A DNA stretch of 60,502 bases, filler included, from Dugesia japonica (taxonomy: Eukaryota), in the NCBI GenBank assembly GCA_001938525.1. It is 6 parts of 6 records of this genome, joined end to end, with 100 filler letters (N's around TTAATTAATTAA, not from the genome) between each part and the next. Parts side by side here need not be neighbours in the genome. Positions count along the whole stretch, not along the records: positions 21,049 to 31,207 come from MQRL01639549.1; 5 more parts are not named here. One strand, written 5' to 3'. The notes below the pieces were generated by a model that was not told the origin of the DNA, ran no database searches, and saw only the letters and a program-made list of their open reading frames with translations. Below, in pieces: positions 1,757 to 55,483 of this stretch (position 1 is its first letter; the number at the start of each line of letters is the position of its first letter). A program made the position numbers and the translations under genes.

Positions 1757-2953
1757 AAAACATGCTTTGAAAAAAAGATCAAAAATTCTCCGAAGAAATT
1801 AAGTCAATTAGAAAAACTTTTAAACAGTATTCTTTTTCAAATTAAATATTTAACTAAAGTAATTATTTTACGTATGTATTTATAATTAATGGATTACAAT
1901 TAATATTTTTAGACAATTATTGGTGAAAGATGGCGAAGAATTTTTGATCTTTTTTTAAACAAAGAAAATCAAAGTCCAATTTTAGAACAGAATTTACAAA
2001 ATATGCCAGCTGAAGACAAATTGATTAATACAAATCAGTCAAATGAAAACCAAAGATCAACAAACAATTTCGAAGAATATAATTTCAATGTTTCGATTTA
2101 TCATAAAACAACAAAATTTCTCACATCTGAGATCGAAAATTATTGCATAGAATCTGAATTAAAAGGACTGCCATATTTTTCTAGAATATCTCAAACAAGT
2201 AAATCTTACAAAAATTTCAATGATACTTTGACACAAAATACCGACTTACCAAATATTGATTCAATAAAATTCAGCCAACCAAACACTTCAGTTTTCAAAC
2301 CGAATTTTAAAGAAATTAAAAGTAATATTTGCTATATGTATATCGGCACTACTTAACCAACTGAAATATAACATATGAAATCCTCTAAATTTCGAATTGT
2401 TTTTAAAGTACCATTATATGGTTTATTGTAATTAGAAAACAAAAAATTAATTTAGTGATTTTGAAATAACAAATATCGATTGTAGAAACTTTTTTTCGAA
2501 ATTTTAAAGGATTTGATATCAACAAAATGTGACCTTAATGAAAAATATTTACTCAACTTACTTTCAGTATCACCTATCAAGCGGGTTAGAAATGCATCAG
2601 AAAAATCCATCAGAAAATTATCGAATTCAGAATTGGACTTGAAAGACAAATCAAATCAAATTGGATCTGATAAATATCAAACAACAAAAAAAGAAATTAT
2701 CAACGAAGGAAATCACTTAGCTCTATCCGGTATTTCCAAAAATTCGTTTGAAATAATTTTTTATAAATTTTTGAATTATCTATTAGAAAATTGCATCAAA
2801 TATACTCAACCTGCAGACAACTATCTAAATGCTTTGCCGAATGTTCAAAATTTCGTACATACAACAAATTATGATTCGATTCACTATAGACATTTTAGTG
2901 AACCAGCTTTTATAAATTCATCAAGTTCAACTTGTCCAAGTAAGATTGATTGA
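1757..2953 (+). CDS. Hypothetical spliced gene, partial; exon 1757-1858, 54-nt intron, exon from 1913, further exon to 2953 (structure unresolved)
   Basis: Open phase-0 exon bounded by tttttag/gt joins in frame to the 2003-2356 ORF; the join to the 2513-2953 ORF could not be resolved; no recognisable domain. Confidence 0.4.
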
Positions 2954-5225
2954 ATTTGATATAAATTATTTACAAATTATAAACAAATTGAACATCTAAT
3001 TAAAAATATCTAAAATGGAAACCATATTTTCTATATGTATCAGCGTTAAAATTTCGTTAAATATTTTGTTCTTGAAATTGTGTGTCAGTACAAGTATGTA
3101 TGTATAAGATACCGAAAAATATTCTCTTGGCATTTCAATGCTTGGTACGCTTTGTTATATGGAGCTAGTGATTCTGTTTCTCCATCGCAACAATGTTTGT
3201 CTCTATATTGACAGATTAAGTAAATGTAAAACATGTATGCGTTTGTGTATGTGTTTTATTTCATGACTGATTTTTATTCTTTGTATTGGAAATTAAAACT
3301 TCATCCCACAAATTAGTAAATATGATCACAATAATCAATAGAAACACGTGGTTAACATTAAAAAAAATTTGATTAAAATTCATAAAATGAAAAGGTAAAT
3401 ATCGAAGCACACCATTTGAAATTGTGTTTGAACGACTTCATTTCCATTGTTAGTGAAGCAAAATTTAGACTGTGTGCTGTTGATTAGTGTGTCTTGACTA
3501 GACAAGTTGAATGACTTAGTTACAATCAATTTTTAAATGAAATTCATTTTATAAGCATCTTAATGTCACGTTTTTATTGATTGTATTTCTATTCAGTGAC
3601 TTCCATCTATCCACTTGGACCTAATTTTAATTCTGGATCTATTCCTTCTCATTCGGAGGTTAGTCAGTTTTGTTATTTATATTTAAATTAATTAAAATAC
3701 TGATAAACGTAAATTAATAATTTAAAGTAATAATTCATAAATTTNNNNNNNNNNNNNNNNNNNNNNNNNNNNNNNNNNNNNNNNNNNNNNNNNNNNNNNN
3801 NNNNNNNNNNNNNNNNNNNNNNNNNNNNNNNNNNNNNNNNNNNNNNNNNNNNNNNNNNNNNNNNNNNNNNNNNNNNNNNNNNNNNNNNNNNNNNNNNNNN
3901 NNNNNNNNNNNNNNNNNNNNNNNNNNNNNNNNNNNNNNNNNNNNNNNNNNNNNNNNNNNNNNNNNNNNNNNNNNNNNNNNNNNNNNNNNNNNNNNNNNNN
4001 NNNNNNNNNNNNNNNNNNNNNNNNNNNNNNNNNTTTTAATTATAGACATTTCATTCAATGAACTTAATTGGATTAGTATTCCAAATTTTCAAATGAAAAT
4101 TTTTATATTAAGCCAATATAATTGTAAGAATTTTTATATTTTTTATGAAAGTTAAATTTTATTTCAGTTTGCATTTTTCNNNNNNNNNNNNNNNNNNNNN
4201 NNNNNNNNNNNNNNNNNNNNNNNNNNNNNATGTGTTTTTCATAAGTTAGTTTATCATTTTGTTTAAATGCATAAAATTTTTCATTAAAATTGTCTATTGA
4301 ATTTAAATATAGCTTTTTTTTGAAACTAACAATTTTAATTATAGACATTTCATTCAATGAACTTAATTGGATTAGTATTCCAAATTTTCAAATGAAAATT
4401 TTTATATTAAGCCAATATAATTGTAAGAATTTTTATATTTTTTATGAAAGTTAAATTTTATTTCAGTTTGCATTTTTCTTTCTTAAAAATTTATATTAAA
4501 ACNATTGTTAACAAATTATTTGAAATAGAAAAAAAATAATTTCAAAGTTTAATATATTTTATTTTTTATAAAATAAATAAATTACTTAGGTTAAATTTTG
4601 TAAATAGTTTATAAGAAAACATTTTTAGAACTCAACACCTTTCTTATTTGAATTACATTTTAATAAAATGAAATACAAATTTATTCTCACTTTTAAAATA
4701 TGACTACAATAAATTAATATAAAAATTGGAAATAAGATCAAAAGCTATGAATTATATAACTGTTTATAATTGTGATTCCATTATTACATTAGAGTAGTAA
4801 TTTCTAAAATGACTTTTCGTTATATATTACCTATTTATTAATAACTTTAAGCGATTCAAATTTAAATATTAAAAGTTTTGGTTATTGTATACTGTTCAAG
4901 AAATTAAAATCTTTATATATTACGTTGTGGTAGTTTATAATGAGGAAACTATTTCTATCCATTTAGTTTTTTTATCCAAACATTCTTTGCTTAAAGGAAA
5001 GAAGTACTTTATTATTTTCATTACACGCTAACATATTTCTGAAAATTCAAAAATCGATTAAAAATTAAATATTTTTTTATTTCATTCAAAATTACATTTA
5101 TGATGCTAAAATTTGACTTTTACACGTTTAATCAAAATTTATTCTACGAATTCCATTATTTGATATGCTTAAAATTTATAATTTAAACGAACATGTTCGG
5201 TGCCTTTATTATTTATGTCTTAGTA

Positions 5226-5644
5226 CAGTGGTTCTCAAACTGGGGTCCGCGAAGCGGTGTCAGGGGAACTATGGGGGGATTCCTTTCCTTCGCTATTTTG
5301 CTAACGACTTTGCAGTCCATTCGTAAATTGTCTCACCCGAGATATCTCACNNNNNNNNNNNNNNNNNNNNNNNNNNNNNNNNNNNNNNNNNNNNNNNNNN
5401 NNNNNNNNNNNNNNNNNNNNNNNNNNNNNNNNNNNNNNNNNNNNNTTTACTTTTATTTAGAATACGAAATTCAACGCTCTGGTGTAGTTTTTTAAATCAG
5501 AGAATATTTGTCTGGATTTCGTTCAAAATACGGGAGAAAAATAGGAGATTTCCGACGTTAATTATGGTTAATTTTAGTTAATTTAAATTTTATGAGTCCA
5601 CGAGCCGTCAAAAAATTCCCAAAACTGCCACACAGGAAACACTG
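5226..5644. mobile_element. Non-autonomous hAT (Charlie/MER5-like) element
   Basis: Starts CAGTGGTTCTCAAAC, ends GGAAACACTG; perfect 8-bp TSD TCTTAGTA at 5218-5225 and 5645-5652. Confidence 0.85.
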
Positions 5645-5692
5645 TCTTAGTAGAAACCAAAGTTTCAATTTTTTAAATTACAATTTAATATA

Positions 5693-7401
5693 CAGTCAAA
5701 CCTCTCTATAACGTCGCCTCTCTAGAATATCTCTCTATAATGTCAAACCTCTCTATAATGCCAAACCTCTCTATAACGTAAAACCTCTCTATAACGTCAC
5801 CTCTATAACACCAAACCTTTCTATAACATCAAACCTCAATAATATCAAACTTCTCTATAACGTCAAACCTCTCTATAACGTCACCTCTATGACATCAAAC
5901 CTCTATTACATCAAACCTCTATAACGTCAAACCTCTATAACGTCACCTCTATAACACCAAACCTTTCTATAACATCAAACCTCTATAACATCAAACCTCT
6001 CTATTACGTAAAACCTCTCTATAACATCAAACCTCTCTATAANNNNNNNNNNNNNNNNNNNNNNNNNNNNNNNNNNNNNNNNNNNNNNNNNNNNNNNNNN
6101 NNNNNNNNNNNNNNNNNNNNNNNNNNNNNNNNNNNNNNNNNNNNNNNNNNNNNNNNNNNNNNNNNNNNNNNNNNNNNNNNNNNNNGTCACCTCTATAACA
6201 TCAAACCTTTCTATAACGTCAAACCTCTCTATAACGTCACCTCTATGACATCAAACCTCTATATAAAGTCAAACCTCTATAACGTCACCTCTATAACATC
6301 AAACCTTTCTATAACGTCAAACCTCTCTATAACGTCACCTCTATGACATCAAAACTCTATAACGTCAAACCTCTATATAACGTCAAACCTCTCTATAACG
6401 TCACCTATATGACATCAAAACTCTATATAACGTCAAACCTCTATATAACGTCAAACCTCTCTATAACGTCACCTCTATGACATCAAACCTCTATAACATC
6501 AAACCTCTATAACGTCAAACCTCTATAACGTCACCTCTATAACACCAAACCTTTCTATAACATCAAACCTCTATAACCCCAAACCTTTCTATAACATCAA
6601 ACCTCTATAACATCAAACCTCTCTATAACGTAAAACCTCTCTATAACATCAAACCTCTCTATAACGTCAGCTCTCTATAACGTCACCTCTATAACACCAA
6701 ACCTTTCTATAACGTCAAAACTCTCTATAACGTCACCTCTATGACAACAAACCTCTATGACATCAAACCTCTATAACATCAAACCTCTATATAACGTCAA
6801 ACCTCTATATAACGTCAAACCTCTCTATAATGTCAAACCTCTCTATAACGTCACCTCTATGACATCAAAACTCTATAACGTCAAACCTCTATATAACTTC
6901 AAACCTCTCTATAACGTCAAACCTCTCTATAACGTCACCTCTATGACATCAAAACTCTATATAAAGTCAAACCTCTATATAACGTCAAACCTCTATATAA
7001 CGTCAAACCTCTCTATAACGTCAAACCTCTCTATAACGTCACCTCTATGACATCAAACCTCTATAAAGTCAAACCTCTATAACGTCACCTCTATAACATC
7101 AAACCTTTCTATAACGTCAAACCTCTCTANNNNNNNNNNNNNNNNNNNNNNNNNNNNNNNNNNNNNNNNNNNNNNNNNNNNGTCACCTCTATAACATCAA
7201 ACCTTTCTATAACGTCAAACCTCTCTATAACGTCACCTCTATGACATCAAACCTCTGTATAAAGTCAACTCTCTATAACGTCACTTTTTAAAACCCAAAA
7301 TGAATTTTCCAATTATAATTTATCTATATCTACCACAAACTTCCGTACAACATCACTCAGTTCCGGTCCCGATGGGTGACGTTTATAGGGAGGTTCGACT
7401 G
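5693..7401. mobile_element. pogo/Tigger-like MITE inflated by a TIR-derived minisatellite
   Basis: TA|CAGTCAAACCTCTCTATAACG ... GTTTATAGGGAGGTTCGACTG|TA; interior is about 1.55 kb of 14-18-bp variants of the left TIR. Confidence 0.85.
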
Positions 7402-8084
7402 TATCTAGCATTCTTTCCAAGAATAGTCCTTCCACCGAAACTACGGTAAACAATTAAAACGGAAAGCAGATGCAGCTAACAAGCATTTATCGATCGACGG
7501 CCAACAATAAAATCAGCCTTGACAATAGTATGCTTCTTTAAAACGAAACGCGTTAAAATATTAACAAATCTCTTTCTAAATTACAAATGGGGATTTTTAT
7601 TATAATAAATTTTAATTAACATTTCAAAAATTTGTAGATTTGTAATCTATATTGAAAACTGATGAAAATTAATTAGATTACTAATTCATATCTTAATTCT
7701 ATTTCAATTTCATTAGTTGAAAATATGGGTTTAAGTAAATAAATCCCAATAGATCTTAACTTAAGCTATTTTTAGCACAAAATTTTGGTTTTAATACGCC
7801 CACTCATACAAAATTCATAAGGATCAATGTTGTTAAAATGAAATAAAATTTAAATAGTTAAAAATTTTCATGTTATGTTGAATTTAAAATCAAAAAGCTA
7901 TTAATTATAACATTTGTAATTGTATTTGATCTGATAAAAGCATTTTATCTCTAATGGTATCCAACTAAAGTCCGTGAATGCTTTTAAAACGTTCTTTTTT
8001 CTAGAAATGTACTCTCAAAAGTATATTTAACCAATTAAATGCGGAATTTATTTTTATTTAATTTTAATGTTGAATAATCCGATA

Positions 8085-8581
8085 TACATCAGGCAAATAC
8101 TACAAGTAAAATAATGGGAATACCAGTTGTATCAGGAAAATATTACGAGTAAAGTACGGAGAATACTAGTTGCATCAGGAAAATATTACGAGAAAAGTAC
8201 GGGGAATACTAGTTGCATCAGGAAAATATTACCAGTAAAATACTGGGAATACCAGTTGTATCAGGAAAATATTACGAGTAAAGTACGGAGAATACTAGTT
8301 GCATCAGGAAAATATTANNNNNNNNNNNNNNNNNNNNNNNNNNNNNNNNNNNNNNNNNNNNNNNNNNCAAGTAAAATACTGGGAATACCAGTTGTATCGG
8401 GAAAATACTACAAGTAAAATACTGGGAATACCAGTTGTATCAGGAAAATATTACGAGTAAAGTACGGGGAATACCAGTTGTATCGGGAAACTACTACAAG
8501 TAAAATACTGGGTATACCAGTTGTACCAGGAAAATATTACGAGTAAAGTACGGGGAATACTAGTTGTATCAGGAAAATATT
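8085..8581. repeat. 43-bp minisatellite, about 11 copies, two alternating variants
   Basis: Unit CAAGTAAAATACTGGGAATACCAGTTGTATCGGGAAAATACTA at 8368 and 8411; alternates with a CGAGTAAAGTACGGGGAATAC variant. Confidence 0.85.
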
Positions 8582-8644
8582 ATATCTTAGTGAAATTTTG
8601 AGTTTTTATATAGGCTAGTAATTTTTTAATTTTACACGAAGTGT

Positions 8645-8718
8645 ATACACGTCAAACCAATTCTAACCAAGAATTGGATTGACGTGTATTCACGTCGAAC
8701 TCAATTAACTCGTTAAGG
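8645..8718. repeat. 20-bp-stem hairpin followed by ...AAGGG, possible piggyBac-like element end
   Basis: ATACACGTCAAACCAATTCT-AACCA-AGAATTGGATTGACGTGTAT (1 mismatch); terminal AAGGG but no intact TTAA. Confidence 0.4.
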
Positions 8719-14097: not shown

Positions 14098-17000
14098 TGT
14101 GATATAATATAAAAATGAAGTGTTTAAATATTCAGATTTTAGAAGAGGAGAGTTTGAATTTGTTTTATTTGAATAAATATTATTTTAGTAATTTATCATT
14201 AACTTGGCGTCAGGAGCAGAATTCAGTATATTTTTGTCAAATTTATTCAACATGATTGAGAAGCTGCCAAGTTTTCATATATGAGATGATTCTGTAAAAT
14301 ACCTTTTAGGAATTTAAGAACCACATTCTTAATTTAAAGATCGAAAAAATTAGATATTTTATTAATTCCTTAGAACAAGATGCCCAATATGAATTATTTT
14401 CTTTACCAGATTAGTAGAATGTTAAGGGTGACAATTATTTGTTAAATAATAAATTTGTAGAATTATACAAAGTTAAAGATTCGAGGATTTCTAATATTAC
14501 CGAACTTTTACAAATAAAGCAAAATGACCTCTCTTTAAGAGAATTTATTACAAAATTGAGAGTTTATTTATTTAAAAGTCAACCAGAATTGAACAGTAAG
14601 GACAGAGAAAAGACTTTAATATTCATATTTTTATTTAGATTGAACGGTAAAAAAGTGGCAGCAGTAGTTCAATTTCTTAAGCCAGAATCATCAGACGAAT
14701 CTTATAACTTTGTAAAAGAAGAAGTTAAAAACGAAAGTAAGGAAAATCTGAGACAAATTAAAACACAGGTCTTATCAGATGAAGTGCGTTCACTAAAACA
14801 GAAGGTGACAGAATTGGAACAAATGATAGCCAGAATATCTAGCGATATAACGGAAGAAATAAATCTGGAGTGAATAACACAAGGACTAATAATAACAGTC
14901 GGGATAGAAATATCCAAATTAAAGATATTAAATGCTTCAACTGTGACAACTTTGACCATTTTGTAAAAAAACCAATTGTGTGTAAAAAATGCAAAAAGGT
15001 TGGCCATTAAGATCGATTTTGCAGAAAAGGAAATATGGAAAGAGTCAGATATATTAATGAAATGATAGTGAAAATATGGAATTTGACGAAATCAGATAAA
15101 TTTCCCCGAGATCAGAAATATCCAGCACAGAGACCAATCATGCATTAAACAAAACTAATTAGAAAAACGTGAAACCAAAAAAGGTAATAAAAGATAATTG
15201 TTATACTAGAGAAGTTATGAATTCAGCTCAATACATCAATGGACAAGGAGCCATACCAAATTTTATAAATAAAGCAAAAACACTGAATTCAGAAAATTAT
15301 TCAGAATTTGCTCAAAATAAGTGTTTGGTCCCAGCGAGAATAAAACAAAAGTGGGTAGCAACACTAATATATAGTGGGGCAGAATAAAATGTAATGGATT
15401 ATGATTTATTATGTGAATTGAGATAGAGTAACAAACAGATTAAATTTTTCAAAAGAACAGAACGAATGCGCTGTGCAAACGGATCACCTATGAAAATCGT
15501 GGGGGTTACGAAGGTTGAACTAGTAATTGGAGAAAAAGAATTGACACTAGAATTTAAAGTGATGGAAAACGTTTTCCCAAAATTTATCATTGGAATTAAT
15601 CCAATGAAAACACACAGAACTTAAATTCTTTCACAGGATGACTGTATATATATCAGGAATCAAGCTTTACCATTTTTATCGAAAGTTTGTGACGATGAAG
15701 CTGAAAATTTACAAGTATCAATCTGAGGAGTCACGATTCTGGTGCTAGAAAAAACGAGACTCAAAGACCTGAGTACAGCTCCATCAACATTTTAACGACT
15801 TATGTATCTGATATTGCAAAATGAAAATTGAGAACAATGTTTTATTTATTTAGACGATATTTTGATATTTGGAAACTCTTATGAACAACATCTCCGTCGA
15901 TTGGAAGTAGTTTTAGCTAGAATAAAAGAATCGGGAGTTAAATTAAAACTTGACAAATGTAATTTTTTGCTAAAGAAAGTTTCATATATGGGACATAGAA
16001 TTACAGCAGAAGGTATAAAAACAAATCCAATAAAGATAGAAAAGTTCGAAATTAGTCAGAACCAGGGGTTACTCAGAGCTACATTCATTTATAGCTTTCT
16101 GTAACTATTAAAGAAAATTTATAAAAGATTTTGCGTATGTTGTTCAACCTTTAGAAACTATACTGAAACCAGACAAACAAAAAATAAATGGGAAATACAG
16201 CAAAAAAACAAATAATTTGGGAGGCTGGAGGAAGAAAAGCATTTAAAAAAATGCAGGAACTTCTAACAACAGCCCCAGTTCAAGCTTATCCTGGAAAAGC
16301 AGGTATTTTCATATTAGATACAGATGCAAGTCACAGCCATATTGGAGGAATCTTAAGCCATGTTCAAAATGGAGACGAAAAAGTTATCCCATATACGTCG
16401 AAAAAGCTGACAAATTAAGAATTGAAATATTTTGTTACTCGTAAGGAATTATTAGCTGTTTATGTTTTTGTGAAACAATTTAGGCATTATTTATTGGGGA
16501 GAAGTTTCAAAATAAGAACTGATCATAAAGCAATATTGTGGCTAAAAAGGTGGAAAAATCTAAATATATCACAGTATTTCACTTGGATCACAGAATTAGA
16601 GGAATATTATTGTGATATTGAACACCAACCTGGCAGATTTCACATAAATGCAGACTATATGAGCCGACCGAAATGTGAACAATGTGAACTCAGACATAAT
16701 GAACAAAAATAACGAAGAAATGTGAAACTGATCGAGAAAGAAAATGATGAGAAACCAATTATTCGAGTTCTAAAAAATGATTTCACGTCTCAAAGAAAAA
16801 AGGAAATAATTGAATATTATCATAATAACATGGGCCATCCAGGATTTATAAAGGCAAAAGAATTAATTCAGAATTATTATGACTGGAAGAATATGAGTAG
16901 AGAGATCAAATTCTTTATTGATAAGTGCATTCTATGCATATATCGAAAGAATGGAATAACTTCAAACTACATTCCTGAGAAACATTTTGTAACTAATGAG

Positions 17001-18041
17001 GCATTTGAAAAAATATGCATAGATATCACCGGACTATTACCAGAATGTAAAGGATATAGATATATAGTTTAGGTGTGATAGATGTCTTCTCAAGATATAC
17101 CATGTTAATTCCTCTTAAAAGCATCAAATTGAGACAAGTAATAAATAAATTGTTTAAAAGATGAATCACTATCTTTGGAATGCCAAAAATTATTCAGTCC
17201 GATAATGGAAGTCAGTTGAAAAACAATTGCATGGAAGAATTTTGTAAAGTTCTTAAAATAAATCAAACCTTTGCAAGCCCATACTATCATCAAGGGAACG
17301 GCTTGATAGAAAGAATCTTTAGAACTGCAAAAGATAGAATTTATGCAACCAGCTTGAAATTTCTCACAAATTTGATAGATGTCATTCCATTCGTCGAAAT
17401 GGGAATGAGAATAACAAAAAATGAAACAACTAATTATTCTCCTTTTGAAATAACTTTTGGTAAATCAAGCTTATTTAAATAACGAACAAGTCAACTCAAA
17501 AAGTCTGGATCAATATTTAGAGAATATTAGAGTAAATTTATAAAGAATAAATCAAAATTTTAAACCAAAAAAGAATGTAATTGTTAATTACCATCAAATA
17601 AAATTGGCGATATGGTAATGTTCAAATTAGATAAGAACAGAATGTTAAAGAAGCGATATAAAGGACCATGTGAAGTTACGGAAATATTATCATACGATAA
17701 TATAAGAATGGGTTACAAAGGGAAATCGCTAATTAGTAATGTTAATCAAATGAAAAAATTTCCAATAGAAAAGCTAGAGGAGAAAGGAGAAAAGTGTCTT
17801 ATGAACACAACAATAATAAGCCAATTAAAATAAATTCAATAATCAAACCGGAAAAATTAACAAGCGATAGACAAGGAAGAGAAAATCCTACGAGAGAAAA
17901 ACGTAAATCAACAAGATTCCGGGAATTCGAATGATAAAAAGATGGATGTGATATATTATAAAAACGAAGTGTTTAAATATTCAGATTTTTTTGAACTTTT
18001 TTTATTTGAATAAATATTATTTTAGTAATTTATCATTAACA
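14098..18041 (+). mobile_element. Ty3/gypsy LTR retrotransposon with both LTRs, degraded (gag, PR, partial RT, RH, IN)
   Basis: LTRs 14098-14204 and 17947-18041; TSD AAATT on both sides; PBS TGGCGTCAGGAG (tRNA-Leu-like) at 14205; YLDD, ILDTDAS, RKELLAV, IQSDNG, YHQGNGLIER, YKGP motifs. Confidence 0.92.
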
Positions 18042-21048: not shown

Positions 21049-21165
21049 GATTGACTCGAATACCGATTGCTATTGTTCGAATACTGATTGTTGCTATTGC
21101 TCGAATATTGGTTATTATGTGTTATACATGTTATGTTATATATGTTATGCATGCAAACCTCAACA
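21049..21165 (-). mobile_element. Start of an LTR-like repeat (TGTTGAG...), truncated by the scaffold end
   Basis: 21092-21165 is the exact reverse complement of 28474-28547 and 31134-31207. Confidence 0.7.
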
Positions 21166-21963
21166 CATGTACTACTGGAAATGGGAGCTAAGTATAGATA
21201 ACATTGCTGGATAAGACGGTTTGATTGGCCGTTTTCGAGAGTTTTGGATCAATCCTTAATCGAAAAATTGGAATTAAATCATTACTCATTTATCATTTAT
21301 TGGCAATCGACATGGAGTTATAATTTACTAAGAAAACGACAATTGGTAACGGGATTTATCTGAATTGACAAACAGGGAATTGGAAATCAATTATCGGAAA
21401 GGTAATCCATATTTTTATCAGGACTAGTCGGTTCTCCCGATTCAAAACCATCAAATGAAGGTATGCAATTATAGTAATTCATTTTTTGCTAAAAAATAAA
21501 TATTTTAATTCTTATTCTCTTTATTTATGATTTACAAATTAACAATAATTGCATTGGAAATCATTTATGCTTTATTATTGATTACAGAATGCTACTTTAA
21601 TGACATTAACACAGGATTAAAATGAAAATTTACTTGTAATTTGAAAATTAGGTTCCTGCAACGGGGTTTTTTCTCGTTTTTCTTCTAGTCACGGAGGTTT
21701 CACACGGAATGGGTGTTGAACTCTTTTCTATATTTTCATTTTAATTGAAAATAATTATGTCCGATTCAACTACAGTTTACTTTCGATTTTTTCCTTGGAT
21801 CACTCGTGATAAATTTTGCTTCCAAGTAATAAATAGACCAGCCAATTGAATAATTACTGAGTCGTAGAATTTCTCTTTTGATATTTCGAATTTAATGAGT
21901 AAATCTTTAACACTTAAGTTTTATGAAATAAATTGTTGTTTTTCGACTAAAATCAGGGGTGTT

Positions 21964-22005
21964 TTTATACCATTTTTGATTACACCCTGACTTCTTCTGC
22001 ATTGG
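21964..22005 (-). promoter_or_regulatory. Pol II promoter module CCAAT - AGGGTGT - GGTATAAA
   Basis: Same three motifs in the same order with near-identical spacing at 33692-33732. Confidence 0.55.
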
Positions 22006-22879
22006 CTGTCTATTTTTAATTTGAATTTCTTGATTCTAATTGGGTCTAAAATTCTAAAACTTTTTAACATTTTCCACTACACCATTGGTGCCTATTTTTG
22101 GATCACCTTGTAATTTTTCTGTCTTTGTTTCATTTTTTTTCTGGTCTATCATTGGTTCATTCTTTAGACCCTTCTCAAGACTCTTCTGGTGATGGTAGTT
22201 TTCTTGTTAAACAATCCTATTGTTTCTGATCATTTCCTTTTAGGATTTTCTTATTCGAAATCTCCATGATTTTTCTGGATTCAAAAACAGGTTTTTCCTT
22301 AATTTATTTTCTATTTTGCGATAAATAAATTAATTTTCCTTTATAAATTAATTATTTTTTTCCGAATTATTTTCTTATTTTCTTTTTAACAATTATGATT
22401 TTCTTAATTAACGACTTAATTTCAGCCAATATTTTACTCATTTGATGCTTTCTTTCTGCATTTTATTTTTTCACCTGTTTCCGTATTAATGTAATTATTG
22501 CAATTTTCTCATCTTTGATAATTATCTTAATCAATTTCTTTTTCTAACTCCTTTCTTTATTATTTCGCGATTTGGGCCCCCTGGCTTTATCTTCTTTTCA
22601 AACTGGGTGTTTCACCCCAACAAATTGCTATCCGTTTTGTTCAAATTCCGTCCCAGAATCTTTCGTTGTCCCACCACGTTGCAGAATTCTTAAAACCCTA
22701 TAATATTGACAGAGCAAGATGAAATTTAAGGTAATTACATCCTATTTATTTACACATAAAAATTTCACTACTTTATACATCAAGCTACGATATACATCAA
22801 TACATATATAATTTGCTTGTTGATTCAATTGCTACCAATATTCAGTAATTCAGTTACTAATTACAGTTATTTACACTAC

Positions 22880-23965
22880 CTTCGGCTTTCTTCAATCAAT
22901 TTCTTCCTCTGGGTGCTAGTGGGTCTTGGGTTTAGGTACTGACCCATATTTAAGTAGAATTTTGGTGACGATTGACTGTGAGAGATTCTTAATAGCAAAA
23001 TCATTGATCTTAATTGATTCAGACGTGGAAATTTTATGCGGGATCCAGCTTGGAGTTACTGCAGGCTTTGGAGGATCTTGAATTATCAATGGTGCTGGAT
23101 GTCTTGGTCGAGCTGGAGTTACTACTTGCAAATTTGAGGGGTTGGGAAAGGTATTGGTTGCCATGCTGGTGTTGTTGGGTTTAAAACCGATTGCGAAGGA
23201 TTTTGGATAAGTAGACCTCTTGGGTGAGATGGAGCTGGTGTGACACTACAAGTGATGACTGGATGAGAGATGGATTGGCAGATTGCATGAGATTGCTGGA
23301 GTTTTTTGATCATTGCAAATTGTTCGATTAGATGCTGCTGTTTTTTTGCAATGTCGGTTTCTTTTTCTTGGCAGCGGGTGCGTAACTCGATGATTTCTTG
23401 TTCTAGTGCAGCTTTTTATTGCTCATAATATTCGCTTTTATTTTGATATTCCTGTATGATGCATTCAAATTCCAGGGATAATTTATCAATACCGGCTCAA
23501 ACGCCTTCTTGGTTAGCTAGATTGGTTAGGAGCTGATTTTCTGTGGCCAGACGAGTTTTCTCAAACTGGGTATTGAATAATTCTATTTGGAGGATTTGGG
23601 TATTTTCTTGTTCTATTGCCAGTTGCTTTTCAAGCTCCTTTCTTTTGGGTTCAACCGCTTTAAATTTACTTTTCCAGTTACAAGCTTGCTTTATGGCATT
23701 TATTTTCGCTCTATTCTCATCGAGGCGTTTTTGGCTATCTTCTTATGCCTGACGCATGCTCTCTTTTTTATTTCGAGTTCATGCCTAATGTTTTCTATCT
23801 GGGTTTCTAGTCGACTGATGTAATTTTGGAGTTGTAGATTTAGAAGTGCATTCTCTTTAGCTTCTAGTTTCCATTTTAGGGCTTCGGGGACTATTATTAG
23901 TGATTGGTTCTGAATTTGCAGAGTGTGGACTTCATCTCGGAGATAGGTTATTAACTTTTCATTGC
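22880..23965 (-). pseudogene. Long coiled-coil protein with Pro-rich C-terminus, disrupted
   Basis: Manual translation NEKLITYLRDEVHTLQIQNQ...KRKELEKQLAIEQEN...LEQEIIELRTRCQEKE then VTPAPSHP/VTPARPRHP; about 2 stops and 2 frameshifts. Confidence 0.6.
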
Positions 23966-24061
23966 TTATTTCTTAATTAGGGAGAGTTATTAATTAAGTA
24001 TAACATGATAAGTGACTATTATAAATAGATATATACATTAGTTATATATTTTATGTTTCTT

Positions 24062-25031
24062 TTATTGTTTAAATGTAATCCCTGACACCCTACGTTCAAT
24101 TAATTTTCGACACATAAGGCATTCATTCAAAATTAATGCGCAATTAAAGCAAGTTTTAAAATGTCTGCAAGGGAGAAATACGACTTGGATTGATTCGTCG
24201 AGGCAAATCATGCAATCACTACCTATTAAAACCCATTCTTGTTAATAACTAATTTGACTGGGAATTATTTTGCGAGATTGTTGGTACAATTCCAGCCGTG
24301 TTACTATTAGCACTCTCTCTCTTTACTCTCTTTTCCGCAACTTTCTTTGCGATTAGTTCGCTGGTATTTTCTTTATTCAGATCAAGTATTTTAGTTGATC
24401 TATCTGCTTGCCATTCGACGGTCATTTCTATTTGGTTTTTCGACATATTCCATTCCACTCTACACGATGTTACTGGTAACTCTTCCACAAGGTTTTGGCT
24501 TAATCTTGAGCACTTTGGTTTGTGAAATATACTCTTTGGCAGTTTCTCTACGCCTTTTAGTATCAGCGTTTTTCTTTTGCAGGTTGTGCATTTTATGACT
24601 TTGATATTTACTTGTCGGATGATATAATATCCTTTCATTGCCTTTTCTATTAATTCTAGTATCTCTTGAAAGGTTTCTTCCTTGGCTTCAAAATCCCATT
24701 CCAAATAATCTGGTAATGTCACTTCGGCTAAGTTCTTTATTACTTTAAAATACAACATTTTGGGTTCTGTGGACACCTTCTCGATTTCCGGTGGTTTGCC
24801 TTGGTTTAATATTTTTGGCTGATTATTTACATCCAAGTTTAGTAGGAATGAGCATGTAAGGAATGATCGTTTATGGTCTCTCTTTGGGTTATCATTCTTA
24901 CTCCATTTATACAGATTTCCTTGACAATAGATACATTTGATTCGATCTCCCAATATTTCTTTGTACAGTTCGCCGATGTTTCGTTCTTGATTTATTTTCA
25001 TCCTTACATAACCGATGCGTTTTTCATCCAT
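24062..25031 (-). pseudogene. Intronless inhibitor-of-apoptosis (IAP)-like gene: BIR + degenerate BIR + C-terminal RING; lesion near 24250
   Basis: BIR GDRIKCIYCQGNLYKWSKNDNPKRDHKRSFLTCSFL; second BIR-like AMKGYY...KCTTC...HKPKC; RING CMICLDESIQVVFLPCRHFKTCFNCALILNECLMCR at 24214-24062 in a shifted frame, absent from the ORF track. Confidence 0.88.
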
Positions 25032-25039
25032 TTTCCATC

Positions 25040-26960
25040 CCTATTTCGGAAATTTGTTGAATTTATGTATTAGTATTTGTTCTACTTTTCTTTCGACTCG
25101 TATATCGACTGGTAATCGTCCTTAATTCTTTTGATTTGTAGTGGGTAAGGGCCCATCTGCCAGTAAGATTTCCATCCTTTAAATTCGTGGTGTACAATTG
25201 AATATACTCCTTTACCTTGATTGATGGTTATACTTTTTTGGCCCTCCTCACTTCTATTTCTTCCAAAAATATTAACCTGGTATTGTCTGTTCTACCATAT
25301 AATGGTGTGATAATTGAATTCGTTTCTCGAGCACGTTTTTATCTCTTCGTTCTCTGTGCTTCTTGACTTCCATTCTTTAATTCGGATATTGTCCTCTAGA
25401 TAATATATCAGAATGTTAATTGTTTCGTCAAATTTAAACCACACCTTGGTTTCGTGTTAGGGTTTTCACATTTAATGTCTAACATTTGTTCTACCCCCCA
25501 GCTTTGTGTGTTGAATTGCATTGATCTGCCTTCTACTGGTGCTTGACTCAAGAGGTGCAATTCCATTTTTCCTTTGGATTGGTGCAACTTTACCATCGCA
25601 ACCTTTTGACTTTTTATTATTGGCCTCAAGGTTATCTCCCAGTATGGCTCACTGGTTGTGTTTTTTGTTCTTTGGTGAAACCGGCCCGACTGATGATTGT
25701 AACCATGGTTAACTCCTTTCCGACTATTATCCTATTTTCTATCAATACCGGTTCATTTACCCAACATTCTTGACTTCGCATTCCTTTTATGGTTATTAGT
25801 ATAGTGTTTAATATGATTTGACCACTAGGTATTCCGTTTCGAGATATTATCTGCACTTGTGGATTGGCCAGAACTGGTAATGATAACCATAATAAGATTA
25901 TTCCAATAACTCCATATATTAGGATTGTTGTTGGGTAACCTCTTCCTAAAATTTTGACGAGTTTCAAAATTAAACATACGAAAATGCCGTAATCCCAGCT
26001 TGTGTTGATTATTGCTCATAGTAACAAAGCCATTTTAATTATTATTTCTAATGTATCTACACTAGCGTTTTTCCATGGTATCTCATTTTCTTGTGTTTCT
26101 TTCTCTGCTTGTTCTGTCTCATTATATACTAAAGTCATTTTCATTCTTTCCATCCCTCCTAGAGCTATGCCGGCCAATTATTTCTCTTCCTCATCCATTT
26201 TATTCGATTGGCCACTGAATGACTTTTCCATTACCTTTACCAGCTTTTGTACTCCTTTGCCAGTATTCCCGATATTGTCTAACTCTGATTATCTGAGAGT
26301 TAGTTTGTCTGATTTTATGTCCAACTTCGCAACATCTTTTATCTCGTATTTTCTTTGTATGGGTGGTCCAACCATTCCCCATGGTAATTGGATATCTGGA
26401 GGTTCATAGACTCTTATCCAATTCCATTGTACCAATGTACAGTGAAAAACGTGAATAACCGCTAGTAACTCGTCACTGTAGATATCTGTGCATAGCAGGA
26501 ATAGATTTTTGAAAATAGATTGATAAATAGGTCCCTGAATTTGTGCTTCAATTGGTGCTTCCATCACAATCTTTTCTAAACCAATTTTCTTGTCTGGACA
26601 GCCATGCCCGTTGATCATAAATGGCTTTTAGTGCAGTTTTTAGTATAATTTGCGTTTTCTTGATGCATCGCAAACAATTCTCCTCCAGTTGTATTGTTGA
26701 GAGTGGGCATGTTATTCGTGCAATATGGATACAACTTTATTCGGACATCGGTATTTGGTTTCCTTGGCACACGATTTGAATAAAGTGGCGTTCATGACTT
26801 CGATCTCAAGGGGCCTATGCATTTGATTATCTGAATTAAAAGATACAGTTGTAGCACCTTGTGGAGCAATAATTGATCTAATATTGGTTATAGACATAGT
26901 CTGCTGTGTTTGAAAAAGATAATTAGAGTTTGGTGTCTCTGTTATTTCAGGTATCCGCAT
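25040..26960 (-). pseudogene. Disrupted large ORF with N-glycosylation sequons and several hydrophobic segments (membrane protein or polyprotein)
   Basis: Collinear fragments from ATG at 26960 (MRIPEITE...); NAT/NTT/NYT/NCT sequons; hydrophobic runs IIIKMALLL, GIFVCLILKLV, ILIYGVIGIILLWLSLPVLA; basic RTKR*KR. Confidence 0.5.
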
Positions 26961-26981
26961 TTTAGTTTCTTGGTAGGTAGT

Positions 26982-36942: not shown

Positions 36943-38977
36943 ATGTCAATGAATAATTATGAAAATATTAATAATGGCAGACAAGAAGTCATTTCAATTC
37001 AATGTGGCCAAGCAGGTGTTCAACTTGGTCATGCGTTATGGGAATTAATAACAATAGAACACGATATTTCAGCTAGTGGTTTTATCAATAATCAACCTGA
37101 TGATATATCTTTCACTACATTTTTTTGTCATTCTTCAAATGAACACTATTTCCCAAGGGCTTTAATCTTTGATACAGAACCAACAATTCTAGGTATTTTG
37201 TGCAAATTTAATATTTTATCCCACTAATTTAGATGAAATTCGATGCGGATACTATAGAAAATTATTTCATCCAGATATGTTAATAAATAATTTCCAAGAT
37301 GCATCAAATAATTTTGCAAGAGGTTATATATCAGAGGCTAAACGTATGATATACAATTTAGTAGATAAAACAAGATATTTGATAGAAAATTGTGATAATT
37401 TTTCGGGATTTCTTGTTCAGTCTGGCACGGCAGGTGGTACTGGAAGTGGTTTATTATCAGCATTAATGGAACATCTTCTAACAGAATTTGCAGGTCGAAC
37501 AAATGTTCAACTTTCAATATTTCCAGGACAAAAATTGAGTAATTGTATTGTTCAGCCATATAATTGTATTTTATCTGCAGAAAAGCTTATTTATTGTTCG
37601 GATCTTAACATTTTAATTGATAACGAAATGCTTTATTCAATTTGTTGTAACCAACTTAACATTCAAAGACCAAGTTTTTCAAATATTAATAGAGTTATTT
37701 CACCGACTTTGTCAGGTTTAACTGCGCCTATAAGATTTCATGGAATGATTAACAGTGATTTAAAAGGGATATCTACAAACTTGGTTCCATATCCTAGTTT
37801 ACATTTTCCATTAGTCAGTTATGCTCCACTCAGTTGCATTGACAAACTAGACCATGATTTACTAAACATTGAATCCTTAACCAGATCTTTATTTGATCAA
37901 GAAAATCAGTTTATTGAGGTTGATCTAAAACAAGGTAGTTTTCTGGCATCTGCTTTATTATATCGAGGAAACTGTGATTTATCTAGTGTTCTTAAAACTG
38001 TTCAGGCGATAAAGAAAGAAAGTGATTTTAAATGGGTTGATTGGTGTCCAACGGGATTTAAGATAAGTCATACAGTTCAGCGAGCATGTTCCATTCCATT
38101 TAATGGATCGTTGAATTATGATAAAACAGCAATGATGATTTCAAATCATAGTAGCGTTGCTTCTAATTTACGAATATTAGAAAATAAATTTAGTGTTCTT
38201 TTTAGAAAAAAGGCATATTTACACTGGTATATAGGAGAAGGTATGGAAGAAAGTGAATTTCTTAATGCTGTTTATGAAGTACAAATTATTTCTTCTGATT
38301 ATTTTAATATTGTAGATCGAATTTTTGTTAACAAAACTTATTCTGATAAATCCCAATCATCTTTAAAATTAGAAAATAATATAAAAGAAAAAGATTATAA
38401 TTCAGATTTTTTGGATATTAAAATTTTAAAATTAGATAGCGCAATTGAAACTAGTAAAATTCCTATACAAAGTGAAGAAATTCTACAGAAGAATGTAGTT
38501 AAATATCATTCAAAATTAAGCTTCAAAGAGAACTTAACTGCCCGGAAAGATATAAGTAATTCAAAAGAAACTTTAACTTCAAAAGAAACGAAATCATCAG
38601 AAAGATTATTTTATAATAAACCTTCAAAAACTGATACAAAAGACGATGAATATGGTTATGATATTGACTTAGATGGCCCCTTTAAAAGTTCTAGTGTTCA
38701 TGATTGGTCTCATCTTTTAACCAATAGATCAACAGTTGATTCTGAGTTCGATTCAAATAATGCTGCCGCAGCAATGTATGAAATGTGTGAACAGAATTAT
38801 GTTGCTAATAGTTATAAAACACTTAATAATAAAAAACAAATTCTTCGACAAAGACATTTATCAAAAAGTAATAGCAGCAGAAATTTTATACAAAAAATAT
38901 TTCGTAAAAATAAAGAACTGTTTAATAAATTAATACATAGTCAACACTATGATTTTATGACTATGTGTAAATTATAA
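36943..38977 (+). CDS. Divergent alpha-tubulin-like protein, 664 aa; exons 36943-37192 and 37233-38977
   Basis: QEVISIQCGQAGVQLG, DTEPTIL/DEIR across a 40-nt GT-AG intron, DASNNFARG, GGTGSG, TNLVPYPSLHF, VDWCPTGFK, HWYIGEGMEESEF are alpha-type; no lesions. Confidence 0.9.
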
Positions 38978-43332: not shown

Positions 43333-45375
43333 TGTCATTTAATATTAACAAATTTAAAACGTTATATCTTTTTATAAATGATAAATAACTGCTCTCTTTT
43401 TCTAATTTTCAATTTTCTTCAGTCATCTAGTCTTCTAGGTTTAAACTGTCCTGTATAATTTATAAGCATCTGAAGTGGACTTTAAAGTTTAATAATTTTG
43501 CAAGGACCCTCATACCTGAAACCTTTTTAAACTTGTGTGGTTCTACTTTCACTATTAATTTTTTCCCTTCAAAATGTCTTCACGTTCGTTTTACACATTC
43601 ATAACTGCTTTGTGTAAATTTCCATCTGCCAGTTTTTTCCTTTCTTTTGTCCGAATTTCCTTCTTGTGGTAATCCGTGTGAGACTTTTCTTCCAAAGATA
43701 ATTTTAAAAGGAGATAGACCGGTTAATTTTTGTTGTGTTGAATTTAATACAAACTCAATTCGTGGAAGTTATTTGTCCCAAACTGATTCTGTGCAGCTGT
43801 TGTTTGCCGTTGTTACCATAATATCTCATAGTGTTCTAATATTTCTTACTGCTTAACAATTTGATTTATGTTGATATGGGGACGGAAATTCTTGTTTAGT
43901 CTCCAATTTCTCTGCAAGTGACGGCATTAACTTTCTTTCAAAATTTTTGCTCTGTCGGTCAAAAAAACTTTTGGCCTATCAAAACGATATATCCAGTTTT
44001 CCTTTATTGCCTCAACTATCGATGTTTCATCATGTTTACTTAACGCAACGAATGACATTAACTTACTTTATCTGTCAACAATGACGAGAATATATTTCTT
44101 TTTGGTTTTCACTTCTGAAAAGTATACATGATATACATGATAACATGTTCCAATGGTCCAAATTCTGTTCTTGGAATAAGAAATTCCTTTCTTCATCCAG
44201 TGTACGTTTTATACATGTTACATATTATACAATTTTTAGTTGATATCTAAATTTCTTTGCATATTTGGCCAAAAATAACTTAAATTCAAATATTCCGTCA
44301 GTTTTTGGCCTCCCATATGATATAATTCATCGTGAATGAAATCTAAAAGGTCGGGTATCGACTTTCCTGCCAGTACAATTCTTTTCTTTTTTCCTTCGTT
44401 GATAATGAGTATCTCATCATCCAGCCTAAACTTTTCAAGTTTGAAAAAATATTTACTTTTGGTCACCATTGTGTTCAGCTTATTATTTATCATTCCACTT
44501 TCAATACGTTCAATGATTTCTCTCGTAATTGGTTCGTTTCTCTGTGCTTCTTTAATATGGCTTCTATAAAAGTTTGTTTTGTCTAAATTGTTGATTTTTT
44601 TAACTCGATGTTGTTCCCCTTTGGCATCTTGATGTATAGTCTGACATTGCGGACAAAGACTCTCTCCTATACTTAAAAGTCCATCAGCATTTCCATGAGC
44701 TGCTCCTTTTCAAAATTCTAGATCGAAATTAAATTCTGCTAGATTTGTTATCTGTGTGAAACTGAGAACTAATAGGCTTACTAGTCTTCGTCATAAAAAT
44801 CCATGCTTTATGATTGGTTCTTGCTTTAAATTACTTGCCCTACAAATAGTGTTTAAAATACACCATAAGCTCATGCAGAGCTAACAATTCCTTGCGAGTA
44901 ACATAATATCCGTTTTCATGATTGTTTAAAGTTCGAGAACCATATGCTATGACCTTTTCCAAACCATTGTCCGTTATTTGACTCAAAACTCCTCCAATAT
45001 TGCTTCAAAACTAGCATCAGTTTCCAATATCATTTCGCCCCTATTATTTCGGAAAGTCAAGATCGTAGCACTACACAATTTTGTCTTTAAAGATTAAGAA
45101 CTATCATCACATTCTTTTGTCCATTCAATGTTCATTTGTCGTCTGAATCATATCATCGGAAAAACTTGGTTTTGTTTATAGCAATTCTTGTGTTGAAGAT
45201 GGCAGCTTTGAAAAAATCTTCTGGNTATCATCTTTTTCTTTCTTCGTCAGTACGCTTATTTTGTCGTGGTTATCAGTTAAAAAACTTTTATTAATAATGA
45301 ATTATTTTAACAAATATTATCATTTAATATTAACAAATTTAAAATTTTTTATAATTTTATAAATGATATATAATT
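43333..45375 (-). mobile_element. Internally deleted Ty3/gypsy element (RH and IN remain) with 58-bp terminal direct repeats
   Basis: Repeats 43333-43390 and 45318-45375; purine tract beside the 3' repeat; ETDAS, RKELLAL, HDELYHMG, PYQH motifs; TSD not convincing. Confidence 0.8.
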
Positions 45376-46068
45376 ATAAAAAGAAATTTAAACCACGTAA
45401 AAAGAGTGCATTATATTTTTGGAATCGCATTAAAAACAGAAGGAGGTGTATAAACATTTTTAGGATTTGTCTCGTTTGCTTTCAGTATCTTTAATTGAAG
45501 CATTTATACTACTTCTTTTTAAAATCGAATAGATTTTCTTTTATAATTGAGACAAAGACAATTTGCATAAGATTTTATGAAATGTATGTTGATTTATATC
45601 AAAATAAAATTTATCTAAATATTTTATTTGCATAATTATTCTGTTTTAATTATAATTTAATTAGCATTTCTTAATCTAGAATTAACAATAACATATTTTG
45701 TAGTACATAATCTATTTATAATTAATTTAATAAATTCATAATTTCTCAAATATGGTAATCCTTTGAAAATCAATTTTAAATTTTAAACTTTCAATCAAAT
45801 TTCCTAGATTTAAATACGTTTATTTTCAATATCTAAAAAATAGATTTAGGTGAATTTGTGGACGCTATTTCGACTAAAATATGTTGGCAAGACATATTTC
45901 TAATAAATTTTGTTAAATTACATTTTTATTATTAAAATAATGCTCATTCTATTTAGTTTATATTGAAAAATTTTAAAATTTAAAATTCTTGGAATTGCTT
46001 TAAACTATATAAATTTCATTTGATAAATTTCTTTTTTTTAATTATAAATCACGACTTTTATTTGTAGT

Positions 46069-49000
46069 AGTAAAAAGACTTGCCATTAATATTTAGTATT
46101 TATTTAAGAATATATATTTTGTATTATTTAAACAAAATTGACTGTTTAAATAATCACTATTTTCTAACTTNNNNNNNNNNNNNNNNNNNNNNNNNNNNNN
46201 NNNNNNNNNNNNNNNNNNNNNNNNNNNNNNNNNNNNNNNNNNNNNNNNNNNNNNNNNNNNNNNNNNNNNNNNNNNNNNNNNNNNNNNNNNNNNNNNNNNN
46301 NNNNNNNNNNNNNATATTATGAGGTTCCTTTTTTACAAGAACATTTTCACCAATTGCAAATTGTCTGTGACCTCTTGTATCTGATTCGTACGTTCTCATT
46401 TCCTCCGCAACTCGTTTCAGTTCTACTTGTGTTTCATTGATAACTTGTTCATGATTAGCGGGCTCATTTCTCGACAACCCATGTAACAGCACTTGTCGCA
46501 AATATGGAACTTCAAATGTAGATCTCTTAATAGCGCTTTGATATGTTGCATTAATTGAAAATTCAATCTTGGAAATGTATTTATCCCAAGTAAATCTATT
46601 CTCATCACTATTCATTGAAGTGACTAACATATCTCTGACTGTTCGAATTGCTCGTGCTGCTAGACCGTTGGCTTAATGTTCGTAAGGTGATGTAAATTCC
46701 TGTGTAATTCCAAATCTTACACACAACTCGTTCATTTTGCTACCTTCAAAAACTCTANNNNNNNNNNNNNNNNNNNNNNNNNNNNNNNNNNNNNNNNNNN
46801 NNNNNNNNNNNNNNNNNNNNNNNNNNNNNNNNNNNNNNNNNNNNNNNNNNNNNNNNNNNNNNNNNNNNNNNNNNNNNNNNNNNNNNNNNATAATAACAAG
46901 CAAGTACTTTTGATTAGACTTATACTCAGAAAAGTAGGCCACATCTATTACAATTTGTTCTAGTCCAAATTCATCTCTTGGTAACAATAGTTATTTTTTA
47001 GACCTTTCTGTTAGCACATATTTCACATTTTTGAATTTCGTGTTCTATTTTTCTACTCATATCAGGCCAGAAATATATCTCTCGAATATATTCCACTAAC
47101 TTCTTGCTTCCAAATGACATAGTTCTTCGTGCAAGTATTTAACTAATTTTGGTGAGTGATTTTCTGGTATAACCATTAGTTTCTTCTCTTGTTCATCTTT
47201 AATCACAATATTCCCAAATAATTTGAATTTATCTAAACTTTTAAAATATCTGCTTTTCTTCACGTCAGTAGTAACATTATTATCCAAGCTTTGTAACCAT
47301 CATGATATTGATCTTAGTATTCCACATTGCTTTTGCAACTCTTCAATATTTTCGTCATAAAATACATTTTCGTTTAAACTGTTTATAAATCGAATTTTCA
47401 ATTTAGTCCATTTACTATCATGGCGTTTAGTTAAGTATTGAATATACAGCTTTTCATTTATTCTGGAAAGTCCGTCAACATTGCTTGTGATCCGTTCCTT
47501 TTCGATATTCTGAATCGAAATTAAATCCAGAAAGATTAGCAAACCAAGTCTGGTGCTGTGGACTAATTGGTTTATTTGTTTTTTTCATATAAGTTAAAGC
47601 TTTATGGTCAGTTCTTATTTTAAACTTTTTCCCAATCATATAATGCTTAAAATGCATAACAAATTCATGAATAGCCAAAAGTTCTTTTCTGGTTACACAA
47701 TAACCTTTCTCATGAGAATTTAAAACTNTCGACGCAGAACCTATAACTTTTTCATCTTCTTGGTTATCGTTTTGACTTAGAACAGCTACAATAGCTCCAA
47801 AATTTGCATCAGGGTTCAGAATTATTTCTTTTGATGGATCAGGAAATGCTAATATTGGTTCTGTAGTTAATTCATACTTTAGCTTTTGGAAACTACTTTC
47901 AGCCTCTTTGGACCACTCGATCAATTTTACATTTTCTGATATCATTGCATACAGTGGTGCAGTAATAGTTGCATAATCTTTGATAAATCGACAATAATAA
48001 TTAGTTAGTCCCAAAAATGATCTTAATTGTGTAACACAACCTGGGATTGGTGCTTNTGTAATTTTTTTAATTTTATCATCCTTTGTTTGAATTCTTTTTT
48101 GACTAATTGTGTGCCTGAAAAAATTCAATCTATCAGTTCCAAATACACAATTTCCTGGATTAACTTTTTTTTGATGCTTTAATTAATTCAAATGCTTTTT
48201 CTAATCTTAGATTATGTTCATCGACAGTTCTTCCATAAACTAAAATGCCATCTAAATAAACAATTACACCTTTATACAGCATTCCTTTAAAAATCAAATT
48301 CATTAAACTCTGAAAAGTCGGTGCTGTACATAAACCGAACGGCAACCAGTTAAAGCAGAATTGTCCAATTTTAGTACTAAAGGCTGTTTTCATTTGTGAA
48401 TCTTTGTCTAACACAACTTGATAATAAGCTTGTCCTAAGTCTCTAGATGATAAAATAGTTTATCCATTTAAAGTATCCTAAAGTGTGTTTATGCCAGGTA
48501 CGGAAATGAAAATTTTTCAGTTACTTCATTCAACCGTCGAAAATCCAAACACATTCGGATAGAACCATCTTTCTTTGGTACTATCACTAAATTAGAATTC
48601 CATGTGCTTTTACATGATCGTAAAATTTTGATTCTAATAAATCTTCAATTAATTTATCAACATTATCTTCTAAATGCATTGGCTGTCTTGGATTTTGAGA
48701 AATCGGAGGTCCTTTAGTATGCTTAATCAATGTAGTGATTCCTAAATCAAATTTGAATGCCATAAAAATCGATCCATATTTTCATTAATTTTTCAATAAA
48801 TGGAGTTCTGTCAGGAACATGCTTTAATGCCGTTTTAACCCGATCACAATCCGTATATGTTATATTTACTTCAAATGAGTCAATAAATTTTACGTCTGCC
48901 AAGAATACTCCACATAATTTCATCATATCGATTCCACCAATAAAACCAGGAGAAATACTTTTAACAACCAAAATTTCTTTCAAAGGTTTATTATTCCATA

Positions 49001-54843: not shown

Positions 54844-55421
54844 CAAGCTTGCCTTAAAAGGAATACGAAAAACATCACAAAACCACCACCAAAAGGTTGT
54901 GAATGCAAATGTCGTCCACCATATATCTACGATAACAAACCACAATTCAATGCAGTAATTACTGGAGGAGTTTCAAATTGTTTTCAGAGCTGCCATAGTG
55001 CAAGTTTTGTCAGTATTGACAAAAGTTTTGTTACATTTTGGTTGGGTTTATGGGCTGTTCTTTGTTGCCTTAGTAGTACAGCTACCGTTTTAACATTTCT
55101 TCTTGATCGCTCTCGATTCAAATATCCAGAACGTCCAATTGTATTTTTATCTGGTTGTTACATGATGGTCTCAATTGGATATATTATTCGCGTCGCATTA
55201 GGCCATGAATCAATAGCGTGCGATGGAGATAAACTTAGATATGGAACAACTGGTCCTGCACGATGTTCAATTGTATTCTTACTTATATATTTTTTCGGTA
55301 TGGCCGCTTCAGTTTGGTGGGTTATTTTAACGGTTACATGGTTTCTATCTGCTGGTTTGAAATGGGGTAGTGAAGCCATATCAAAATATTCTGAAGTATG
55401 TATTAACTGATAAAAATAATT

Positions 55422-55483
<62 letters not shown>

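Follow-up and report, generated by a model that had tools for sequence, protein, structure and literature searches.

The locus described here is part of a 60,502-nucleotide stretch of DNA from Dugesia japonica (GCA_001938525.1; hereafter, the window), which joins parts of six genomic records, and falls within positions 21,049 to 31,207, contributed by record MQRL01639549.1. The minus strand, to which all features below belong unless another strand is given, contains a 260-aa open reading frame (ORF; positions 24249–25031) that starts with the ATG at 25031, terminates at the stop codon 24251–24249 and encompasses a BIR domain (BIR1), a second Cys/His cluster, and a linker. BIR1 (24843–24965) is recognized by the profile PF00653 with a score of 43.1 bits (E 6.3e-11; cut-off 22.9 bits) and is the sole BIR found by the Pfam search. 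Its zinc core, C-x2-C-x16-H-x6-C, shows the canonical spacing, the ligands being located at 24935, 24926, 24875, and 24854. The match covers profile positions 30–69 of 70 only, that is, the C-terminal, zinc-binding half of the domain; the N-terminal half (profile positions 1–29) was unmatched by Pfam in all three frames, which may be due to decay or to native divergence, the two being indistinguishable in this copy. The best 60 of the 74 PDB sequence matches of BIR1 are all BIR proteins, led by the BIRs of NAIP, XIAP, ML-IAP, cIAP, and DIAP1.

Downstream of the ORF, in a different frame, lies a RING domain of the C3HC4, IAP type (24062–24214; first Cys at 24214), which terminates at a stop codon (24064–24062) nine codons past its last Cys. 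The RING is matched by PF13920 (E 7.4e-14, Pfam), and 10 of its 13 PDB matches are RINGs of IAPs (cIAP1, cIAP2, XIAP, and ML-IAP; best E 5e-9). The BIR and RING matches are both far beyond chance. The two domains do not share one open frame: the break between them (24242–24251) consists of the stop of the ORF and a separate stop upstream of the RING in the RING frame. This copy is therefore a pseudogene, unable to encode a BIR and a RING in one chain. A preliminary description, made from the sequence alone, had reported a canonical BIR zinc motif in the 260-aa ORF, an IAP-type C3HC4 RING in another frame at 24214–24062, and a disruption between the two, and had proposed a check against the Pfam BIR and RING profiles; all three elements are confirmed here, by the two significant profile matches, the PDB matches of the RING, and the frame change with the stop at 24251.

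The same description recognized a second, degenerate BIR in the ORF, and here the evidence is mixed. Residues 148–174 (24510–24590) form the pattern C-x2-C-x18-H-x3-C, the spacing of which is non-canonical for a BIR. The 194 residues behind BIR1 contain four Cys and a single His, and a relaxed zinc pattern arose in only 5 of 20,000 shuffles of these residues, a result that overstates the case for the cluster because the pattern was chosen after inspection of the sequence. The BIR profile produced no Pfam match to this part of the ORF at E values up to 10, phmmer against PDB yielded 0 matches, and the cluster could not be aligned with BIR1 (shuffle P 0.34). In the Atlas, residues 95–235 fall near BIR clusters (0.87, 168 of 256 features), a result at the level of a lead, the top two clusters being the same as those for the whole protein. 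By eye, short words resembling the BIR consensus precede the cluster. Together, these observations suggest that the second cluster is probably metal-binding and perhaps a degenerate BIR; what stands from the original claim is a Cys/His cluster that is unlikely to have arisen by chance, without the profile match or the canonical spacing of a BIR.

The module is embedded in a decayed coding tract of about 5.9 kb, extending from ~26980 to 21170, that is one-stranded, A-rich, and intron-free. Across 21501–27000, in 500-nt bins, the A content of the minus strand is 0.37–0.51 and the T content 0.20–0.30; the GC content is 33–41% from 22501 to 27000, above that of most of the window. Stop-depleted frames extend for about 1.9 kb upstream of the ORF, such that approximately 950 decayed codons lead to the RING. 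These upstream frames comprise segment A (25635–26978), which is Cys-bearing and contains 6 stops in 448 codons compared to 33.1 ± 5.3 in shuffled sequences, and segment B (25033–25731), in another frame, with 5 stops in 233 codons compared to 17.1 ± 3.9. Segment A includes a membrane-like hydrophobic stretch (~25940–25850, hydropathy peak 2.5); neither segment has a known domain, with no significant Pfam match and only PDB sequence matches with E 0.9 or worse. On the other side of the module, a decayed ORF (22876–23972) encodes a coiled coil followed by a Pro-rich region; it produced only sub-threshold Pfam matches, to coiled-coil profiles, and, by inference, could be Smc-like. Within it, 23742–23125 contains 2 stops in 206 codons compared to 11.9 ± 3.3 after shuffling. 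All the stop counts were obtained for the best-chosen frames, so the contrast with the shuffled sequences is somewhat inflated.

The IAP module probably formed the C-terminus of a longer protein, as had been proposed; the extended stop-depleted frames upstream of the ORF point in that direction. The preliminary description envisaged a frame continuing upstream past a single stop at about 25042. That stop is real (25041–25043) but there is another one 26 codons upstream, followed by a change of frame, so that the upstream coding DNA has been broken many times.

Directly after the last ORF stop, at 22875–22893, there is a candidate polypurine tract (15 of 18 purines, 7 of them G) followed by TG, a possible start of a 3′ LTR. 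As a candidate, it is weak because it shares ranks 2–6 among the TG sites in 24100–21170. In one run, the contig depth goes from 0.6 to 30 across this site; a second copy of the putative LTR was not found within the window. The remainder of the tract (21166–22875) is A-rich and mostly stop-rich and might be a remnant of an LTR or of 3′ non-coding DNA; it is truncated at 21165, where the end of another repeat and an assembly gap intervene. Profiles for gag, protease, reverse transcriptase, RNase H, integrase, and ankyrin detected no match in the six frames of the tract, nor did the ankyrin, MATH, BCL2, and env profiles match the 5.9-kb fragment.

The tract is bordered at its 5′ edge by a MITE-like insertion of 135 bp (26982–27116, no strand assigned), the 29-nt terminal inverted repeats of which are perfect; this insertion is multicopy in the runs aligned. 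An ATG at 27104 was considered as the gene start and rejected given its location within this insertion. At ~27130, without a gap, the tract adjoins AT-rich Polinton-like DNA with genes on the other strand. This Polinton- or adintovirus-like fragment (27171–30290, plus strand), presumptively labelled from its gene content and in view without its element ends, includes a PLA2-like ORF (29169–29552; PF08398, E 3e-9), an ORF with a sub-threshold match to the rve integrase (29483–29977), and small HTH-like ORFs repeated at 27231–27360 and 27717–27846. Another LTR-type element is represented by two identical 3′ ends, at 27941–28547 and 30268–31207 (plus strand). Each consists of an ORF without a Pfam match, a purine tract, and a TG start (28474 and 31134), and both run into assembly gaps; an assembly artefact could explain this duplication. 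The same LTR-type end occurs in inverted orientation at 21092–21165 (minus strand), where it cuts the IAP tract.

Elsewhere in the window, there are decayed ordinary gypsy elements at 44236–50027 (minus strand; reverse transcriptase/RNase H at 47475–48182, E 2.6e-26; integrase zinc finger at 44236–44709; protease trace at 49079–49447) and at 14098–18040 (plus strand; gag trace at 14418–14873 between short direct repeats), as well as tandem arrays of 16–18 nt and 43 nt units (5679–7299 and 8017–8668). A long intron-free frame at 37193–38977 (plus strand), the product of which is absent, as read, from the protein collection, encodes a divergent tubulin (profile matches to Tubulin, E 1.6e-27, and Tubulin_C, E 6.5e-27) that bears, at its C-terminus, a low-complexity extension of more than 200 residues. 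An orthologue of frizzled 5/8-4 occupies 54844–56397 (plus strand), with two exons in view, the last of which is 91% identical to its counterpart in Schmidtea mediterranea. The frizzled ORF at 55564–56397 shares 253 of 277 residues (91%) with S. mediterranea Fzd-5/8-4 and shows 69% identity to the Dendrocoelum lacteum sequence, with the other 118 of the 120 matches listed at 60% or below; the close identity to the S. mediterranea protein indicates that the host is a dugesiid planarian, and the value of 91% suggests a species other than S. mediterranea itself.

Relatives of the 260-aa ORF were sought in several collections. The exact sequence is absent from the protein collection searched, where neither homologues of similar length (0 of 342 candidates) nor longer ones, up to 2,000 aa (0 of 4,072 candidates), were detected. 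Likewise, there were no relatives in 12 stretches of viral contigs, in 593 stretches of metagenome contigs, or among phage records. A single-sequence AlphaFold model of the ORF had a mean pLDDT of 34.5 and was unusable.

The DNA of the tract is multicopy. Assembly contigs from three runs, belonging to three studies, one of which may be the source of the window itself, were aligned on 23900–27300 (3.4 kb) at 80% likeness. This survey produced 821, 842, and 847 contigs in the three runs, with all 30 bins covered; 441, 447, and 426 of these contigs were less than 90% alike to this copy, and 55, 57, and 63 were at least 99% alike. The summed contig depth, which does not equal copy number, was 1,796–3,197 over the BIR core and 1,830–5,610 over the RING end, compared to about 10–21 for contigs nearly identical to this copy. 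This pattern fits a diverged family along with a commoner relative that is recognizable mainly in the BIR and RING. The linker before the RING carries small indels in other copies. A run with a second organism label contributed 78 contigs, 57 of them less than 90% alike. Variable sites were distributed 11/15/8 over the three codon positions, without a third-position excess, in a biased subset of 34 coding sites among the 40 listed of 1,103 variable sites. The earlier characterization of the module as an intronless IAP in mobile DNA agrees with these results, the module being intron-free and the tract multicopy.

Transcription was assessed in raw reads of three RNA runs that bear the same species label, 6–25% of each of which was read and for which the strain match was uncontrolled. 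These yielded 135 aligned reads, none of which was at least 95% alike to the locus. For 65 of the aligned reads, the match is confined to 38 RING bases, and these reads come from another RING transcript. Such reads are present in all three runs (49, 10, and 6 reads), match 24149–24186 apart from five differences that they share, and diverge on either flank; their source is an expressed RING gene of a related type, either a host IAP or a member of another element family. In one further run of presumed RNA, which may be DNA and is the run with the depth step at the candidate polypurine tract, 6 of the 81 contigs were at least 99% alike, at a depth of about 2.

In IAPs, the BIR engages caspases or IAP antagonists and the RING ubiquitylates them, and large retroelements with such domains as cargo are on record in planarians. 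According to PMC6431247, Burro/GYPSM1 are gypsy-like LTR elements of more than 30 kb, present in thousands of copies, that carry BIR, Smc, MATH, ankyrin, BCL2-like, and env-like regions along with a 4,873-aa ORF1 polyprotein, and decaying Burro fragments with stops and frameshifts occur in Dugesia japonica. PMC13465017, which reports this at second hand, attributes to Burro1 a RING+BIR region, ‘B-IAP’, that is anti-apoptotic and protects stem cells; the same source gives dugesiid or geoplanid planarians as the host range of Burro. Other papers describe Burro as an abundant, piRNA-repressed planarian family (PMC8532177, PMC11410931, PMC10175614, PMC13309565, PMC10558129). Our literature search found no transposon-borne IAP in planarians other than that of Burro. 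BIR+RING cargo in a planarian retrotransposon is thus already published and functionally studied for Burro1, so that the novelty implied by the preliminary description is not supported, with BIR-carrying Burro elements in print in PMC6431247 and their B-IAP in PMC13465017: the element described here is not new in kind.

We consider it likely that the locus is a dead fragment derived from the 3′ region of a giant, Burro-like LTR retrotransposon of the Ty3/gypsy type. Consistent with this assignment are the dugesiid host, the BIR+RING cargo, the many diverged copies (821–847 contigs per run), the one-strand organization of the tract, the stop-depleted frames upstream and the coiled-coil ORF downstream of the module, and the candidate polypurine tract with TG. 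Against it stand the lack of gag, protease, reverse transcriptase, RNase H, and integrase in a fragment that is cut at its 5′ end, the single possible LTR end with a purine tract that is not outstanding, the direct junction with Polinton-like DNA at ~27130, and variable sites that show no third-position excess. That the module works like a retrotransposon-carried IAP is well supported. Burro membership we infer, because the fragment is without pol and none of the searches returned a Burro sequence match; the polyprotein context and the LTR start are likewise putative. Intact relatives would translate the module from the element RNA, probably at the C-terminus of a long polyprotein. The predicted role of its BIR is to bind caspases or IAP antagonists, and that of its RING, as an E3 ubiquitin ligase, is to ubiquitylate the bound targets. 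By analogy with what has been reported for the Burro1 B-IAP, cells with an active element might resist apoptosis.

A more far-reaching scenario, which we put forward as tentative and on balance rather doubtful, is that a lineage of planarian retroelements, either separate from Burro1 or derived by independent capture, has a two-unit IAP (a canonical BIR, a remodelled BIR-like zinc domain, and a RING) at the end of a membrane-protein-bearing polyprotein, accompanied by a high-copy sister family with the BIR and RING better conserved than the rest; this would amount to convergence on the two-BIR design of baculoviruses. Independent capture as such, with the IAP module being cargo of either an LTR family other than Burro or the neighbouring Polinton-like element and playing the same anti-death role, appears unlikely. 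The tract is multicopy with no Burro sequence match obtained, and the Polinton-like genes start less than 2 kb away across a gapless junction, as this alternative would have it; however, those genes are on the opposite strand, in DNA with 20–28% GC, compared to 33–41% in the tract, and with the opposite skew, which argues against Polinton cargo, and BIR+RING cargo is known from Burro in the same host family, making a second origin less economical.

Derivation from a host IAP gene, as a processed pseudogene or an expanded gene family, is very improbable. It would account for the lack of introns, for the best PDB matches of the BIR and RING being to animal IAPs, and for the RNA reads of another RING transcript that match 24149–24186 with five differences, but outside the 38 matching bases these reads diverge in both directions, and the 1.9 kb upstream, which is not IAP sequence, is likewise covered by hundreds of diverged contigs. 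In addition, a membrane-like stretch but no IAP domain is present in the coding DNA upstream, and there is no poly(A) tail past the RING stop. Large DNA viruses of invertebrates carry IAPs, and an endogenised piece of a non-retroviral virus would fit the compact, intron-free BIR-RING layout and the 63% viral membership of the top Atlas cluster (0.89, a lead only), but we regard this as the least credible origin and dismiss it almost entirely, given that viral contigs and phage records contain no relative, that so many copies of the entire tract would be more usual for a transposon, and that the Atlas taxa do not indicate origin.

A transposon that carries an apoptosis inhibitor and might benefit the stem cells of its host would be a striking case of mutualism between host and element, and this case has been published for Burro1. 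The present locus adds at most a decayed example from what is probably another dugesiid species, a hint of an old, diverse family there, and a putative further unit resembling a BIR. Its importance would grow if full-length copies revealed that the capture was independent or that the second zinc domain is conserved.

Among known systems, the closest are Burro1/GYPSM1 and Burro-2 to -4, which have in common with this locus the host family, the BIR+RING cargo, and the multicopy state, along with a long upstream coding region, nearby coiled-coil (Smc-like) coding DNA, and the existence of decayed copies. In contrast, the locus is a broken 5.9-kb fragment without pol or paired LTRs. Burro1 is described with one BIR in PMC13465017, whereas this copy may have two units. 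With animal IAPs (XIAP, cIAP1/2, ML-IAP, and DIAP1) and the NAIP BIRs, the module shares the BIR zinc core and, with the IAPs, the C-terminal RING of the IAP type; unlike in those proteins, only the C-terminal half of the BIR is matched, there is no UBA or CARD match, and the gene is broken and lies in repeat DNA. The layout of baculovirus IAPs is two BIRs followed by a RING, and the comparison with these and with DIAP1, drawn in the preliminary description, fits as regards layout, not origin, with the second BIR unestablished. Compared to the baculovirus proteins, the second BIR here is only putative, the context is a planarian genomic repeat, and no viral relative was found; what the two have in common is a compact, intron-free arrangement of BIR(s), linker, and RING that, in baculoviruses, serves to block host cell death for the parasite genome.
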